This document shows, in pieces, positions 27,001-39,000 of a DNA stretch of 64,000 nt. The stretch covers positions 64,001 to 128,000 of the forward strand of contig CAXXGJ010000006.1 of assembly GCA_963677895.2 (NCBI GenBank), read 5' to 3'. The position numbers were made by a program. This DNA comes from Treponemataceae bacterium (lineage in GTDB: Bacteria; Spirochaetota; Spirochaetia; Treponematales; Rectinemataceae). Position 1 is the first letter of the stretch. Each line of letters begins with the position of its first letter.

Positions 27001-30000
27001 CCGCTGGATATGGAGAGGCTGGAGGCGCTTGCGGCGCGCGCGGGCCGGCCACGGCTCGCGCGCGCCACCGGAGCCTACCTGAGGGCAGCCCTATGATGCG
27101 GGAAGAAATCCTCGAGATAGCCGACATGGCCGAAACGCCTGAAGAGAAGCTTTGCGCGACACGAGCATGCATCCAGGCCGCGGCGCTTCGCTCGCTGCAC
27201 GAGCTGGGAGCCTTCGAAAAACTCTGCCTGACCGGAGAAAGCGCCCGCCATTTCGCCTCCGGAACGCCAGAATACATGACCGACCTCGAATTCGGGCTTG
27301 TGGACAAGAAGGGGTACAAACCCGAACAGTGGCTCTTCGCGGTCAAACGCCGGCTGCGTTTCATGGGACTGGACGCACGCATCGCCTTCGCGCGAAAAAC
27401 ATCCGTCCACTCAGGCTGGGTAAAGGTGACCGGCCTCCTCGCCGAGGAAGTCGGCTTCAGGATCGTCATAGATATCGCGCCAGTCGAGCCCGCGACCTGC
27501 AAGGTGAAACTAGTGGACATGGCGGGAGAGTGCTTCGGTATTCGGTATAGTAGCGATTTGGCGAGAGTATTATGATGAAGACTCTTGGGTAGCTAAAATT
27601 TTAGGCACGAATCAACATGTTTCATAGGTTGTCTGCATCAGGAAATACACTAGTCCCCACTATGATCAACGTCTCACATGAATTTTGTATTGGAAACGCG
27701 TCGTGTTATTCGGATTCCGTATACTATCGATAATGACGACAATGACAATGACTAGTCCCGTGAGCACACGTTTCACCGGTTCAGATGCGCCCAACTGTGA
27801 TAGACCTGTCTCTAAGGCTACCATGATAATTGTTCCCAGGAAGCTTGACCATACATTCCCTTCCCCTCCCCTCAGACTGGTCCCACCCACAGCCACGGCA
27901 GCGATCACGTAAAGCTCAAGGCTTCCCCCAGTATTCGGGTCAACCGCCTCCATGCGCGCGCTTTCAAAGATCGCGGCTATTGCCACCAGCATCCCCGATA
28001 GGGCGAAGGTTGCTACCTTAATTTTCCCTGTAAAAACCCCCGAAAGATACATCGCTTCCTCGTTCGTTCCGATTCCGACTACATATCGGCCAAAAACCGT
28101 CGATCTGAGAATGTACTCGAAGAGGATTATCATCATGAGGGTGATAATGAAAGCAAGCGATACGCTGTTCAATACGATCGTGTTCAAGACTGAAAGTACT
28201 GATCCGAGATAAATGGTCCGGGAGCCGGAAAAAAGGTATGACATTCCCCTATATATCTCCATAGTGCCTAAAGTCACGATAAAAGGAGATGCGCGCCACT
28301 TGACAATGACAAGACCGTTTATCATTCCCAACACTATACCAAGCGCGATGGTAATAACGATGGCGATAGGCGTGGCCATGCCAAAATTGGTTATGGCCAC
28401 GGCAAGTGTGATCGAACAACATGCCATAATTGAGCCGACAGACAGATCGATGCAACCGACTAAGATCACGAAGGTCATTCCTGTCGCGACGATTGCGTTA
28501 CTCGCCACTTGATTGAGGATCGTGCTAAATGTCTGGATCGAACGATAAGGATTCTTTCCGGAACCTAGAAGCGACATAATGAGAAGTATCCCGATGGGAA
28601 AAAGCAGGAATTTAATATAGCTCATGTAAGTCTTTTTAATGTTCATTATTTTCGTTTTCCTTGAATACTTTAACATCGACGGGTGTTTCTCTGTCTTCCT
28701 GGAGGGTCCCTGTTCTTATAGCCTGCAAAGCACACTCTATCCCCTCGACGACAATCTTATCGGGATATTGTTCAGCAGTAGCAATTATCCGTTTCTCCTT
28801 GAGAATTTCGTTGACGGCCGTTATATTGTCGAATCCCACGATTTCAACGTTTTTTGCTACTTTACCGAGGGCTTTTATAGCGGCGAGCGCCCCAAGCGCC
28901 ATTGTATCATTGGCGCACGCAATTCCCCGTATATTAGGGTATTTTCTGAAAATGGCAGTGGTCGCAGTGTTGGCCTTTGTGATATCCCAGTCGCAGGGCT
29001 TAATCTCGACGATATTCATCCCGTAGTCTAGAAAAGCCTCTACAAAACCTTCCACCCGCTCTTTTGAATTGAAAGCTGTCGGAATACCTTCAAGGATCGC
29101 AACCTCTGAGCCTTTTTCAATTTTTTCAGCGAGCTTTGTGGCTACTTGCATAGCCGCGTAGCGGTTGTTAGGTCCGACAAAAGTGATAGAATGTTTTTTT
29201 TCTTTTAGTATTTCGGAATCCAACTGGTTATCTATATTTATTATAACTATCCCTTTTTCGATGGCTTTCGTGCATATCGGTATCAAGGCTTTCGAATCGG
29301 CTGGCGCTATAACTATAGCGTCAACGTTTTTCGCTATCATATTTTCAACAATATGAATCTGCCCTGAAATATCATTTTCATTCTTTATGCCGTTTACGAT
29401 CAAGCCATAGTCATCATGATGTTCGCGTTGATGTGCGGTAGCGCTCTGCCTCATGGTGATGAAGAAATCATTAGCCAACGATTTCATCACGATTGCAATA
29501 GTTGGTTTGTTTTCATTGTTGTTCTTTTCTGCTATATCACAACACAATAACAGGAAAATGGTGACTGCTATAACGATGACAAAGCGAGACAGCTTGTGCC
29601 CTTGTAGCATTCTTGTAGTATATTTTTTTCCCATCATGACATTTTCTCTTCAGAGATATCCGAAGTTTTCTGATTTCCCGATATGTTACCATGCATATGT
29701 CTCAATAGAGGCAACTTTATGACCATGATAGTCCCCTCCTTTCCGGATTCGCATTCAATGATCCCTTGATGCGCTTCGATGATATGCTGGCAAATAGATA
29801 AGCCTAATCCGCTGTTGTTCCTGCTGTTTTTCGTACTAAAAAATGGATCAAATATCTTGTCTATTATCTCCACAGGAATACCTGGCCCATTATCCTTGAT
29901 CGCAATTTCCGCAATGTTCTTATCGAACACCGTCGACAATCGTATTTCTATTATGCCTTTGCTTAAGAATGATTCCATGCTGTTCTTTATTAGGTTAAGG

Positions 30001-36000: not shown

Positions 36001-39000
36001 TTGAGCTATACCGAGCATCTCCACTGGCGTGTGGGGATCGATAGAAAGTCCTATTTTATCGAGGATGACCTTGGCATCGGCATAGATTTTCTCATAATCA
36101 ACTATTCCATATTTGCGTGGAAGTCGTTCGAAAAAAATATTTTCCGCGATTGATAAATAAGGAAGGAGATTAAACTCTTGGTAGACAATCCTGATCCCAG
36201 CCCTAATAGCGTCCTGCGGTCCTCGAGGAACGAACGGTTTGTTATCAAGGTAGAGGACCCCGGAATCCGGTTTGTTAATTCCACAGATGACTTTCACCAG
36301 ACTGGACTTCCCCGCTCCATTCTCTCCGACGAGGATGTGCACTTCTCCCCGTTCGATATTCATATTAACATTGTTAAGCGCCATAACGCCGGGAAAACTT
36401 TTATATATCCCTTCCAACCTCAGTATGCTTCTACTGTGATCCATATCATCTCTTCTCTGGTTTTGATCCGCGTACCTGACAAGCGTCGCGTAAAAGATTA
36501 CAAAGGCGTCGCCGAATGAAATTCAACGACGCCTATAAACGCAGTACGATTTTTTATTTTTTTAGATTATCGATAGTTATCAATTTAACTGGAGTCTTCT
36601 GCCAACCTGTAAGCGAATTTGCCTTGGCTCCCGTCTGAAGCAACTCAAGGCCGATTTTGATAGCATTCGCCGCAAGATCACCGCCAAATTGATCGACTGT
36701 TGCGAGCACTTTGCCCTGCTTGATCAGGTCCTGCACCGCCGCGATATTGTCGAATCCTACGATTTTTATGTCTTTGCGGCCGGCGGCTTCGATCGCGCGG
36801 GCGGCACCAAGCGCCATTGAGTCATTCGCACACATAATTCCCTTAATGTCGGGGTGAGCGGTGAGCAGATTGGTTACGACCGTGTTGGCTTCTTCCGTCT
36901 CCCAATGAGCAGTAGTCGAGGCTATAAGGTTGAGGCGACCTTTCTTGATCGAGCGAAGGAATCCTTCTTTTCGTTGTTTGGCATTGTCCGCGCCAGGCAT
37001 ACCCTCGATTATCACAACTTTACCACCAGCGCCGAGGCTCTTAGCCAAACAATCACCGACAAGTTCGGCACCTTCAGCATTATCGGGGCCAACGAAGAGG
37101 AAGTTTTCGGGCAGTCCCGCTTCCTTGAGAGCTTTTTTATCCAGCGTGACATCAATATTGATAACCGGGATGCCCGCGTTGATCGCTTTCTTCACCGATG
37201 CGACCATACCCACAGAATCGGAAGGCGCAATAACGATAAGGTCGACTTTTCTCGCGATGAAGTTGTCCATCGCAGCCACTTGAGTGTCGATATCGGTTTC
37301 GGAATTCATTCCTACTGGTATTAGGGTGAAGCTACCATCAGCTGCGGCAAATTTCCGCGCCCCTTCTTCCATAGTCTTGAAGAATTCATTCGCAAGCGAC
37401 TTCATCACGAGGCCAACCACGGGTTTCGCGCTCACACTGCTAACGGAAGCGATGAAAAGAATGAGAGAAAAAAGTACAACCTTGCCCAAGAATCCGTTAA
37501 TTTTTCTGTTCATGTTATTCTCCTCTCGAGGGATCTATCAGTGCCGGGTAGACGATAGTGCTCCAAAATTTGTCTTCATCAATGAAGTTTTGAATTGCCG
37601 CTTTCCGCGATCCGATCGGGCCCGCATCCTTGGTGTATGCAGTGCTTCTACCGTAATCCTGAGTCATTTCAGCGTTCACATCGACATAGACACCAAACAT
37701 TTTTTGCGGGGTTCCGTCGGCAGGAATGGGGCTGTCGTTCCAGGAAAGAACGATTGTAGGGTCGATGATGTAACCAACGGCTAGAACATCCCAAATGTTA
37801 GAAGGTGCCTTATTCTTATTTTTAAGCAGGAAAAGGTCTCTGAGCCCAGGGTAGGTAGTTTCAAGCACTTTGTCATAAATGGCTTGTGGCATCCCATGGG
37901 TATTGTCGTTGGCTTCCAGCCCGGAGATCATTTGGTTCCCATATATTTTATATGACTCGGAATTCTTGTCACCCCACTGAGCACGGACGGAGATCTTGGC
38001 GGCGTCTGGATCGGCCCACCAGTTGAACTCGGCAGCGGCAGATGAATTCCCTTTCAAGTAAAATGAGCCTCCCATATAGACGATCTCTTTCACTTTCGAA
38101 GGCAGAGTAGGATCTTTCATGATCGCTCTCGCAATATTAGTCGCAGGGCCGATCGCTGCGATGGTCACTTCCCCTGGGTACTTGTTGACGGTGTTTACGA
38201 TAAAGTCAACAGCATCTGTGTTGCCTTCGGGATCGGGAGAAGTAGGTCCATACACGTATTTATAGGTGGGATCCTTGCCATAGTAGAATTTATACACATC
38301 TTGCCACTTGGCCATGGGGTCAGTGTCGATACCGGTGTTTTTTTCGGGGTATTGAGCCTTCCGGAGGTACCCTGCGTATCCTACAGGCCCGGTTATCGCC
38401 AGTTCTGCGCTCAACACTTCAGGAATGGCGCGACTGGAACGTATACCGTAGCGGCTGCCTTCATAAATAGGTACTTTCGAGCCAATGATTTCTAGTTGAC
38501 GAACGCCAGAGGAGACACCATTGGGCATAGAACGGTTCCCTGCAACGACAGTAACGCCAAGGAGTTCCGTTTCAGGGGATTGATCGAGGACAATCATGGC
38601 GATTCCGTCATCAAAGCACTCAACCATGTCTGTGTCGAGGATCACTTTTCGCGCAGAGGCCTTCTTCACTTGCCAGCTGGCTTCCTGAGCGCCAACCACG
38701 GATACAAAGCACAGCGCGATGATAAGGCAGAACGCCTTAGTCCAGAAGCCCTTCATCATTTTATTCATATGCCTTCCTTTGTATTGATCATGCGATCAAT
38801 GCTCATTGAGATACATTCTTAATAGCAAAAGCCATGCCAGACGGATAGAATTCTATTATGAATAAGTGAACCGGTTTTCATTGAAGATTTGAGTCCTGAA
38901 ACGATCAAAAAACCATAAGCTTTAGTCAACCAGAAAGAGGTTGTTGCCGGAGCTAAACGGAAGAAAAATTTTTGATAAAATCCATGTATTTTTTTTTACC

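Follow-up and report, generated by a model that had tools for sequence, protein, structure and literature searches.

A soluble histidine kinase carrying a CUT2-type ABC ATPase domain and its possible role as a reader of sugar-transporter state

The window, by which we mean the whole 64,000-nt stretch of Treponemataceae DNA analysed, contains a tight operon that encodes, in order, a ribokinase-like sugar kinase, a sigma-54 response regulator, a histidine kinase fused to an ABC nucleotide-binding domain (NBD), the binding protein SBPa and the permease PERMa. The neighbouring upstream operon encodes an exported nucleoside hydrolase, the binding protein SBPb, a tandem ATPase and the permease PERMb (Table 1). 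The response regulator start overlaps the end of the ribokinase-like gene by 7 nt, and the SBPa start overlaps the fusion kinase stop by 4 nt. This 12-kb region looks horizontally acquired.

Table 1 Features of the fusion kinase locus, in window coordinates
Feature	Position (nt)	Strand	Basis or remark
Sigma-54 type -24/-12 promoter element TGGCATggcttTTGC	38825..38839	-	~57 nt 5' of nucleoside-hydrolase start codon
Exported inosine-uridine-type nucleoside hydrolase, 417 aa	37515..38768	-	Pfam IU_nuc_hydro, E 1.4e-51
SBPb, RbsB/AlsB-like periplasmic sugar-binding protein of the complete transporter	36554..37513	-	Pfam Peripla_BP_4, E 1.6e-61
CUT2 tandem (two-NBD) ABC ATPase, 510 aa	34912..36444	-	two ABC_tran stretches (Pfam)
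PERMb, RbsC-type permease of the complete transporter	33935..34915	-	Pfam BPD_transp_2, E 2.9e-43
Candidate sigma-70-like promoter TTGACA-17-GATACT	33840..33868	-	consensus match, in the 177-nt gap before the regulatory operon
Ribokinase-like sugar kinase of the PfkB family, at the head of the regulatory operon	32852..33757	-	Pfam PfkB, E 3.2e-41
Sigma-54-dependent response regulator, AtoC/NtrC-like	31518..32858	-	REC, AAA+, HTH_8 domains (Pfam)
NBD-PAS-HisKA-HATPase_c fusion kinase P0001, 625 aa, soluble	29634..31511	-	Pfam domains
NBD of fusion kinase	30789-31490	-	~aa 8-241
PAS of fusion kinase (PAS_9)	30399-30692	-	aa 274-371
HisKA of fusion kinase	30156-30344	-	aa 390-452
HATPase_c of fusion kinase	29706-30029	-	aa 495-602
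SBPa, exported AlsB/RbsB-like binding protein	28636..29637	-	Pfam Peripla_BP_4, E 1.4e-51
PERMa, RbsC/AraH-type permease	27666..28676	-	Pfam BPD_transp_2, E 1.1e-42

Several of these proteins scored below the cut-offs of their best NCBIfam models, including the PfkB-family protein (ribokinase TIGR02152, 208 bits against 299.65), SBPb (best match RbsB) and the tandem ATPase, which matched AraG, XylG and RbsA over its full length. Signal segments were found in SBPb, in the nucleoside hydrolase (hydrophobic, N-terminal residues 4-32) and in SBPa, probably a lipoprotein, at residues 13-39 and ending in LLLCC. PERMb carries a canonical coupling loop, GRFIYAIGNNEESVRLSG, and the GAFTGA loop of the response regulator is a GAFTDA variant. 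Promoter-like sites such as the sigma-70-like candidate did not exceed chance in the region overall (32, compared with 24.9 +/- 4.8 in shuffles).

The fusion kinase is encoded by a stop-free ORF and is not an assembly artefact. Pfam placed ABC_tran at residues 25-172 with 68.6 bits (cut-off 25), and the domain coordinates were identical to those in the survey's finding, which had also described the neighbouring regulator, binding protein, permease and upstream CUT2 set as Pfam assigned them here. The protein is soluble, with no hydrophobic segment detected (maximum 19-residue hydropathy 1.18), and its AF2 model had a mean pLDDT of 79.8. Its PAS-HisKA-HATPase_c core aligns to positions 256-610 of the 616 in AtoS, and the response regulator matches AtoC from end to end; both scored far below the equivalog thresholds (240 where AtoS requires 646, 429 where AtoC requires 714). 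Unlike AtoS, the fusion lacks a membrane-anchored N-terminal sensor and has the NBD in its place, and "AtoS", the name used for the family in source databases, is a mis-transferred one. The fusion is composed of a CUT2 N-half NBD, a highly conserved linker (Y242, S243, R248 and L251 invariant in 40 fusions) and an AtoS-like kinase core.

Sequence comparison showed that the NBD derives from a CUT2 tandem ATPase, of which it represents the N-terminal half. Against the tandem ATPase of the adjacent operon a single alignment was reported, to residues 2-237 (30% identity, E 2e-38). The NBD is also homologous to RbsA, AraG, XylG, MglA, AlsA, LsrA and YtfR along the full N-half, covering positions 1-250 of NCBIfam models of ~500 positions; none of the NCBIfam CUT2 ATPase cut-offs was reached (175 bits against 850 for YtfR). 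In a tree with 114 transporter halves, 40 fusion NBDs formed one clade with a support of 100. The motif profile is that of CUT2 N-halves, with which the fusion shares the Walker A lysine, Q-loop glutamine, Walker B DE, H-loop histidine and a non-canonical signature, whereas in C-halves the Walker A lysine is R or A, the Q-loop glutamine is E and the H-loop histidine is S, with the canonical LSGGNQQK as their signature. This C-terminal NBD, the sole bearer of the canonical signature in tandem ATPases, is replaced in the fusion by PAS-HisKA-HATPase_c. Across the 40-sequence alignment G41, E42, H43, G46, K47, S48, Q90, D170, E171 and H203 were invariant and the signature was degenerate, in agreement with what had been claimed earlier for Walker A, Q90, D170-E171, H203 and the signature. 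We rejected decay as the explanation of the degenerate signature, because an NBD that is the N-terminal half of a tandem ATPase inherits it as its normal state. Since neither ATP site of a fusion homodimer would have a canonical signature, closure and hydrolysis may nevertheless be weak. The family-specific residues H43 and R44 in Walker A and I172, S173, K175 and P178 in the D-loop region, together with further ones in the signature, are absent from transporter N-halves; groove residues beside the Q-loop are transporter-like in the fusions (P96 in 87%, N103 in 82%, G107 in 100%).

Among 119 listed homologues, 118 were 593-632 aa long and carried PF00005, PF00512 and PF02518, the exception being P0065 (507 aa, without a PF00005 call), and of 301 genomes sampled across the order, with G000 among them, 12 had a full-length match (E <= 1e-100). 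The widespread full-length family and the genome count reported by the survey were thereby reproduced. The same applied to its claim that the sigma-54 regulator lies directly upstream, seen in 68 of 71 loci by scripted count, with the regulator also directly upstream in the remaining three (L012, L041 and L069), where ORF-calling artefacts misled the script. A CUT2-type sugar transporter lay near the fusion in 44 of the 46 well-flanked loci (>= 6 kb on both sides), again as claimed; 39 had a tandem ATPase and permease pair, and the other seven comprised two single-NBD sets, three with a split ATPase and two with none. A further fusion copy does exist on contig C12, but the split reported there reflects one frameshift in a gene whose counterpart in a genome of the same genus is an intact 661-aa ORF. 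The family keeps its gene order and forms a two-component pair with a sigma-54 regulator beside CUT2 transporters, and our literature searches found no paper describing such an ABC NBD-kinase fusion, which agrees with the earlier view of an uncharacterised family.

The proposed sigma-54 link between this pair and the neighbouring operon gained support from the promoter element before the nucleoside hydrolase gene: no other site in the 64-kb window comes within one mismatch of TGGCAC-N5-TTGC. Of 93 sigma-54 motif matches in relatives, 34 lay upstream of transporter genes, a space that makes up 2.9% of strand-positions (1.0 in shuffles), and 32 of the 80 loci had such a motif ahead of a transporter gene. 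The genome itself encodes two rpoN homologues.

SBPa and PERMa are accompanied by no ATPase gene in their own operon. They are 39% and 38% identical to SBPb and PERMb, respectively, and are orthologues of the second binding protein (51%) and second permease (46%) of the closest relative, L001, where the genes run SBPb, ATPase, PERMb, SBPa, PERMa and the pair thus lies inside the transporter operon. An ATPase-less binding protein and permease occurred only in these two loci, so that the survey's attribution of an own permease to the kinase holds for the window and L001 and not for other relatives. The PERMa coupling loop, GRYVVGIGTNEEAMYLSG, is intact and EAA-type but atypical: the coupling-loop arginine, present in 64 of 73 permeases, is Y or Q in both PERMa-type permeases. 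Kinase position 103, where 80 of the 82 locus fusions and every tandem half examined have N, is Y or F in the window and L001. The evidence for an N103/R210 co-change comes from two independent events, and in L053 the permease lacks the arginine, yet the adjoining tandem ATPase retains N.

That the NBD docks on a permease, as had been proposed, is backed by structure prediction only: complexes with PERMa reached ipSAE values of 0.67, 0.67 and 0.69 against 0.00 for the best of three controls, values that express the confidence of the model and do not measure binding. Among reference pairs, a mark of this height was attained by 116 of the 157 solved complexes and by 2 of the 215 mismatched pairs. 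Contacts agreed between runs to at least 84%, with partner pLDDT of at least 78, and the predicted interface joins PERMa 192-215, the intact coupling loop, to NBD residues 76-78, 87-89, 93-98 and 102-119 beside the Q-loop. Because no PDB chain matched the permease profile at E <= 0.01, the result does not reproduce a solved complex of similar sequence; the predictor may have learned general ABC architecture, and the prediction may show only a generic fit of CUT2 NBDs to permeases. Conservation of the interface columns in the fusions (0.66; 0.70 in other columns) matched that in genuine transporter N-halves (0.55; 0.56 in other columns) and did not exceed that of the rest of the domain. Comparing cognate with non-cognate pairs of fusion NBD and neighbouring N-half gave no co-adaptation signal at the interface (z 0.6), with a signal at other positions (z 4.1).

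We put the probability at roughly one half that the locus is a sugar-sensing two-component system whose kinase receives its input through the ABC-transporter ATPase domain. The NBD might instead work away from any permease as a re-used ATP-dependent dimerisation or regulatory module, with imported sugar or sugar phosphate sensed by the PAS domain and SBPa/PERMa as mere regulon cargo. This would suit a soluble protein with a full PAS domain, which could carry the whole signal, in a family where almost all relatives adjoin transporters already owning an ATPase; the family-specific Walker A, D-loop-region and signature residues, being absent from transporter N-halves, suggest a remodelled NBD-NBD interface, and no co-adaptation was seen at the predicted docking interface. 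ABC NBDs are, however, normally saturated at cellular ATP levels, so their closure would need an external gate to carry information. The Q-loop groove also keeps P96, N103 and G107, the predicted docking passed where its controls gave 0.00, and the window operon offers exactly the two parts that an NBD lacks, and no ATPase. We hold a permease-free NBD to be possible but doubtful.

SBPa and PERMa could also be a second importer front-end on the tandem ATPase, or PERMa could form a heterodimer with PERMb, in either case unused by the kinase and brought into its operon by rearrangement during transfer. The one-to-one orthology with the L001 run favours this, gene order differs between window and L001, so that adjacency to the kinase is not fixed, and the intact PERMa coupling motif could equally be bound by the tandem ATPase. 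A binding-protein gene between two permease genes is nonetheless an unusual layout for a heterodimeric permease, PERMa-type loops have lost the arginine while tandem ATPases retain the N103 that the two kinases do not, and SBPa and PERMa of the window, translationally coupled to the kinase, lie three genes plus an intergenic gap away from the ATPase, all of which make such a front-end unlikely. Binding of the NBD to the tandem ATPase or another cytoplasmic partner, reporting the nucleotide state of the ATPase, is very improbable: the NBD is a paralogue of the N-half normally paired with a C-half bearing the only canonical signature, but the halves are covalently paired in tandem ATPases (PMC11466899), a free C-half-like gene was seen in 0 of 80 loci, and none of our tests favoured this reading.

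Partial precedents exist. For RbsA, one degenerate site and a stoichiometry of RbsAC2B are described (PMC11466899). In PstSCAB-PhoU-PhoR, where PstB, PhoU and PhoR interact physically (PMC6978683), an importer ATPase subunit is likewise the signal source for a kinase with a cytoplasmic PAS and no periplasmic sensor; there the link is non-covalent through the adaptor PhoU and PstB is a working importer ATPase, whereas here an NBD of CUT2 N-half type is fused to a PAS-kinase with sigma-54 activator output, and no PhoU-like gene is present. In BceAB-BceS the ABC transporter, rather than the kinase, also detects the substrate, and the kinase responds to transporter activity by inducing the genes for the transporter (PMC6978683; PMC4513084; PMC10314905). 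BceS is, however, an intramembrane kinase contacting the permease BceB in the membrane, within a type VII exporter-like system for antimicrobial peptides in Firmicutes, in contrast to a soluble kinase covalently carrying a sugar-importer-type ATPase domain. CbrA (SLC5-type domain plus kinase) and the Kuenenia Amt-kinase, termed "transceptors" (PMC13022988, PMC5764959), similarly unite transporter module and histidine kinase in one polypeptide, but fuse the membrane translocation domain, whereas the present fusion takes in the cytoplasmic motor only, the membrane and binding parts being encoded by genes of their own. One strict definition (PMC11109136) restricts "transceptor" to membrane folds, and the fusion kinase would therefore fall outside it.

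Under the preferred reading, in which the NBD is the input, two kinase subunits would each bring an NBD to a PERMa dimer, using the customary contact of Q-loop groove and coupling loop, and docking of sugar-loaded SBPa on PERMa would favour ATP-dependent closure of the NBD pair. Closure would reach the kinase helices by way of the conserved linker and the PAS domain, leading to phosphorylation of the regulator, which would then fire the sigma-54 promoter. The sensed sugar would likely be ribose, freed from nucleosides by the exported hydrolase, and ATP hydrolysis at sites with consensus Walker A, Walker B and H-loop and a non-canonical signature would reset the sensor. Where a relative has no spare permease, its NBD would bind that of the neighbouring complete transporter; such transporters have an ATPase of their own in 44 of 46 well-flanked cases. 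Its place in one operon with its own binding protein and permease suggests that the fusion kinase may read transporter state directly and thereby switch on a ribose-scavenging operon.

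Every gene of the region, from the nucleoside hydrolase to the second permease (PERMa), is carried by the minus strand. A gap of 177 nt separates the permease gene of the complete CUT2 importer (PERMb) from the PfkB kinase gene, and because the last five genes, PfkB kinase to PERMa, overlap or are spaced by 6 nt or less, they form one tight operon.

Genes of the locus in transcription order (window coordinates)
Gene product	Coordinates	Strand	Basis and remarks
Inosine-uridine-type nucleoside hydrolase	38768-37515	-	Pfam; first in transcription order
SBPb, Peripla_BP_4 binding protein of the complete importer	37513-36554	-	Pfam
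Tandem ATPase, 510 aa, two ABC_tran stretches	36444-34912	-	Pfam
PERMb, BPD_transp_2 permease	34915-33935	-	Pfam
PfkB kinase, ribokinase-like	33757-32852	-	Pfam; opens the regulatory operon
Response regulator, REC + sigma-54 AAA+ + HTH_8	32858-31518	-	Pfam
NBD-PAS-HisKA-HATPase_c fusion, 625 aa	31511-29634	-	Pfam
SBPa, second binding protein	29637-28636	-	start overlaps fusion stop
PERMa, second permease	28676-27666	-	last gene of the set

The fusion kinase had the domain layout described in the survey's finding, with ABC_tran at residues 25-172, PAS_9 at 274-371, HisKA at 390-452 and HATPase_c at 495-602 (Pfam), and both kinase domains exceeded their cut-offs (47.7 bits for HisKA and 86.1 bits for HATPase_c). 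The protein is devoid of a hydrophobic segment, its 19-residue hydropathy peaking at 1.18, and of an extracytoplasmic sensor; its N-terminal 241 residues are an ABC nucleotide-binding domain (NBD), that is, a transporter component in the same chain as the kinase. An AlphaFold2 model built from a 40-sequence alignment (mean pLDDT 79.8) resolved the NBD (1-241) with confidence and placed the linker (243-255) poorly; a PAS fold follows at 275-369, and the long DHp helices start at residue 371. The Walker A motif reads GEHRAGKS (residues 41-48), with G41, G46, K47 and S48 invariant in 40 sequences, and the conservation noted earlier for Q90, D170-E171 and H203 held without exception (40/40). On the kinase side, the H-box histidine is H398, within AHEINNP, and N506, N510, D540, G542, G544 and G568-L-G-L of the N, G1 and G2 boxes are invariant in the same alignment. 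No PDB chain spanned both the NBD and the kinase parts, the best kinase match being 3a0r over positions 261-595.

This architecture defines a family. Among the 119 listed homologues, which are 44-56% identical to the fusion (P0004-P0018 being the closest, at 49-56%) and are named only 'AtoS' or 'ATP-binding protein', 118 are 593-632 aa long and contain PF00005, PF00512 and PF02518, the exception having 507 aa; an assembly chimera was thereby ruled out. Identity with AtoS was likewise rejected: NF008468 scored 240.4 bits against a cut-off of 646, residues 251-604 alone aligned, and the protein has no transmembrane segment. The part after the NBD corresponds to AtoS positions 256-610, under the cut-off (NCBIfam). 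A scan of one genome per species returned 141 relatives, and 80 of these loci were carried forward. The family is mostly found in Spirochaetota (71/80), with a few other phyla represented by the remaining nine loci, six from Vecturithrix, Moduliflexus, UASB270 or UASB14 and one each from Gynuella, Elulimicrobium and a member of Desulfobacteraceae. Full-length matches occurred in 12 of 301 genomes sampled from the window's own order, its own genome included, which reproduced the earlier figure of 12. A metagenome scan using peptide patterns of a single protein drew generic kinases; of its 80 loci, only L088 is a full-length fusion.

Gene order in these loci was mapped from naive ORFs labelled by phmmer with the window's own proteins as reference. 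The sigma-54 regulator, whose gene in the window lies 6 nt upstream of the fusion, was placed by script immediately ahead of the kinase, in the same orientation, in 68 of the 71 loci with at least 1.5 kb of upstream sequence, and inspection of the maps of L012, L041 and L069, where over-long ORF calls or a split regulator had hidden it, raised this to 71/71. The transporter neighbourhood also proved general: among the 46 loci flanked by 6 kb or more on either side, 39 carry a tandem ATPase and permease pair and three a split ATPase (L034, L041 and L079), two (L018 from Gynuella and L066 from Desulfobacteraceae) have a binding protein and permease accompanied by a single-NBD ATPase (257-276 aa) in place of a tandem one, and two (L003 and L056) have no transporter set. 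The survey's caveat that a dedicated permease is rare was well founded, as a binding protein and permease lacking an ATPase occur only in the window and L001 among these 46 loci. L001 holds the closest relative (fusion 54% identical) and one-to-one orthologues of SBPb (74%), the ATPase (62%), PERMb (64%), SBPa (51%) and PERMa (46%), in a different order: regulator, kinase, SBPb, ATPase, PERMb, SBPa, PERMa and PfkB. In L006 and in L076 the regulator and NBD-kinase pair occurs twice, a few kb separating the two pairs and a transporter adjoining each; in L006, the helical subdomain of the second kinase carries an atypical motif, IAENFALD.

The NBD itself derives from the N-terminal half of CUT2 tandem ATPases. 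BLAST aligned it with residues 2-237 of the adjoining tandem ATPase (30% identity, E 2e-38) and gave no second alignment, to the C-terminal half, and in NCBIfam it matched positions 1-250 of the ~500-position YtfR, AraG, MglA, LsrA, RbsA, XylG and AlsA models, in all seven cases far under the cut-offs. We split 57 tandem ATPases, from the related loci and the window, into halves and compared column profiles. The fusion NBD shares with the N-terminal halves (N-halves) the Walker A lysine and serine, the Q-loop glutamine, the Walker B DE and the H-loop histidine, its Q-loop, Walker B and H-loop profile being equal to theirs, whereas in the C-halves R/A, E and S replace the Walker A lysine, the Q-loop glutamine and the H-loop histidine. 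In a tree with 114 transporter halves, 40 fusion NBDs formed one clade with support of 100, which points to one origin. The fusions also have residues that are absent from N-halves: the Walker A loop contains H43 and R44, Walker B is followed by I172, S173, K175 and P178, and the signature has an acidic residue among positions 148-150.

The same profiles clarify the meaning of the signature. The window fusion lacks the canonical LSGGQ, reading LPEDKQ instead, and the family pattern, L-[STP]-x-[ADG]-x-Q, is non-canonical, which the survey's finding had taken as possible decay. N-halves also have a non-canonical signature, L-[GSP]-[IV]-[GAS]-x-Q, the canonical LSGGNQQK being confined to C-halves, so the degenerate signature of the fusion was inherited and did not arise by decay. 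Sequence analysis of RbsA, in the available text of PMC11466899, agrees, describing a single signature that deviates, a second Walker A that lacks the lysine and an RbsAC2B stoichiometry. A decayed, inactive NBD was rejected on account of the invariant catalytic residues together with the ancestral state of the signature. Judged from these motifs, an NBD homodimer would hold two ATP sites, each combining Walker A, Walker B and H-loop motifs that are competent with a signature that is non-canonical, and the invariance of the catalytic E171 and of H203 argues that ATP hydrolysis still matters.

We then considered whether this NBD docks on PERMa. One pair was modelled, NBD residues 1-250 with PERMa, using a 40-row permease alignment from these loci. 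The predictions gave ipSAE values of 0.67, 0.67 and 0.69, with 0.00 for the best of three controls, and passed a mark that 116 of 157 solved complexes reach, as do 2 of 215 mismatched pairs; contacts were shared between runs to 84% or more, and the partners had a pLDDT of 78 or higher. The predicted interface involves PERMa residues 192-215, an EAA-type loop (GRYVVGIGTNEEAMYLSG), and NBD residues 76-78, 87-89, 93-98 and 102-119 beside the Q-loop, and this predicted arrangement is the one standard for importers. The permease profile matched no PDB chain at E ≤ 0.01, so the pass did not come from a solved complex of similar sequence; the model's general knowledge of ABC proteins may nevertheless explain it. 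Conservation was neutral on this point: interface columns of the fusion NBD are no more conserved than the remaining domain (0.66 vs 0.70), and true transporter N-halves show the same lack of contrast (0.55 vs 0.56). For co-adaptation, we compared by BLOSUM similarity each fusion NBD with the N-half of its own neighbour against the N-halves of other loci (56 pairs). Interface positions gave no signal (z 0.6; C-halves, z -1.7) in what is a weak test, as these columns vary little, and non-interface positions gave z 4.1, reflecting shared ancestry. At the coupling-loop arginine position, 64 of 73 permeases have R, while PERMa has Y and its L001 orthologue Q. At the predicted NBD contact N103, 80 of 82 locus fusions and all tandem halves have N, but the window fusion has Y and that of L001 has F; a third fusion without N103, in L053, also adjoins an arginine-less permease (E), and among 59 loci with N103 and a permease, four permeases lack R or K at the arginine position. 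This small observation on paired residues favours docking, but it amounts to two independent events and no more. Taken from the prediction and the gene context, docking on the permease is the best-supported candidate for the sensing step, at about even odds.

On the output side, the regulator is AtoC/NtrC-like, with a GAFTDA loop instead of the usual GAFTGA. A sigma-54 element, TGGCATggcttTTGC, occupies minus-strand positions 38825-38839, ~57 nt ahead of the nucleoside hydrolase start codon, and is the sole match with at most one mismatch to TGGCAC-N5-TTGC within the 64-kb window; the genome encodes two rpoN homologues (Sigma54_DBD genes). Across the related loci, 34 of 93 motif matches fell within 300 nt upstream of transporter genes, in 32 of the 80 loci, although this zone makes up 2.9% of strand-positions and shuffled loci gave 1.0 match. 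Given the placement of the motif in the window and its enrichment in relatives, the two-component pair most likely drives the adjoining transporter operon, and the tie between the kinase-regulator pair and a sigma-54 regulon is well supported. No ORF assigned to a family occurs in the ~800 nt that precede this promoter (38840-39660), but they include an inverted repeat, TTACCCA-N13-TGGGTAA, which lies ~180 nt ahead of the promoter and may bind an activator. A candidate promoter, TTGACA-17-GATACT, precedes the ribokinase-like gene; a sigma-70 and terminator scan of the region returned sites not above chance.

The likely nutrient is ribose freed from nucleosides, which we infer from the exported nucleoside hydrolase, the ribose-type importer and the ribokinase-like gene heading the regulatory operon; as for the ribose-type assignments, none of these proteins reached an NCBIfam cut-off. 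Hydropathy revealed an N-terminal signal segment in each of SBPa, SBPb and the hydrolase, and since the hydrolase has one, nucleosides may be split outside the cytoplasm and ribose alone imported. In the hydrolase, a 41-residue extension also precedes the Pfam domain. Elsewhere in the 3.5-Mb genome, at least 15 further CUT2-type tandem ATPase matches (500-550 aa) suggest a strongly sugar-scavenging lifestyle.

GC content is 38-48% at window ~28000-39700 and 53-64% on both flanks, and two same-genus genomes in the sample have only a 33-34% identical copy; this ~12-kb block was therefore probably acquired horizontally, and no tRNA or integrase was seen at its borders. The flank at window 23270-25672 and 26455-27096 includes genes for a NAD-dependent sugar epimerase/dehydratase and a UDP-glucose/GDP-mannose dehydrogenase, as well as an ORF of 213 aa that matches AbiEi_4 weakly, under the cut-off (E 0.0029). 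A second family member, the lineage's own copy, follows a complete CUT2 operon on another contig of the genome (C12, ~60.3-62.3 kb; L087, 6295-8276), in the order binding protein, 438-aa ORF without family, 514-aa tandem ATPase, permease, sigma-54 regulator, 399-aa NBD ORF and 283-aa HisKA-HATPase_c ORF, the last two overlapping. The survey's description of this copy as split was not borne out, because a same-genus genome has an intact 661-aa ORF 95% and 98% identical to the two ORFs, the match changing frame at ~residue 396. The single frameshift is a sequencing error or a recent break, and this copy is not a natural two-gene form.

Transporter-coupled sensing by kinases is established for PstSCAB-PhoU-PhoR and BceAB-BceS, according to the available text of PMC6978683. 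In those systems the partners are separate proteins, whereas the window kinase joins NBD, PAS and kinase in a single chain. Covalent transporter-kinase fusions are also known, namely CbrA and the Amt-kinase (accessible portions of PMC13022988 and PMC5764959), and a recent survey, in the text available from PMC11109136, limits the term 'transceptor' to membrane folds. Full-text searches, which are thin on subscription journals, turned up no report of a histidine kinase joined to an ABC NBD, so absence is unproven. The idea of reading a transporter is thus already known; new are the single-chain motor-domain kinase and, in the window, the full set of binding protein, permease and NBD-kinase.

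Overall, the fusion observation is confirmed, the family is real, and it is now clearer where the NBD came from and what its signature means. As a tentative overall reading (probability roughly 0.4), SBPa, a PERMa dimer and two kinase subunits would form a dedicated covalent ABC sensor, and the family would be the first ABC-type receptor kinase. Liganded binding protein would gate ATP-dependent closure of the two kinase-borne NBDs, their scissor-like motion would be the primary input to the histidine kinase, and slow hydrolysis at the half-degenerate ATP sites would serve as a reset timer. The family would go back to an AtoS-like kinase whose membrane sensor was replaced by the N-half of a tandem sugar ATPase; most members would borrow the permease of the adjoining importer, and the window's lineage would have duplicated binding protein and permease for sensing alone.

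How an ABC transporter cycle is converted into a kinase signal is still debated for Pst-PhoU-PhoR and BceAB-BceS. A natural single-chain NBD-PAS-kinase fixes stoichiometry and geometry, and NBD closure and kinase activity are measurable in one molecule, making this a simple system and a modular part for sensors built on binding-protein specificity. It would also correct the family names 'AtoS' and 'ATP-binding protein', and it would explain the sigma-54 control of numerous sugar importers in many Spirochaetota.
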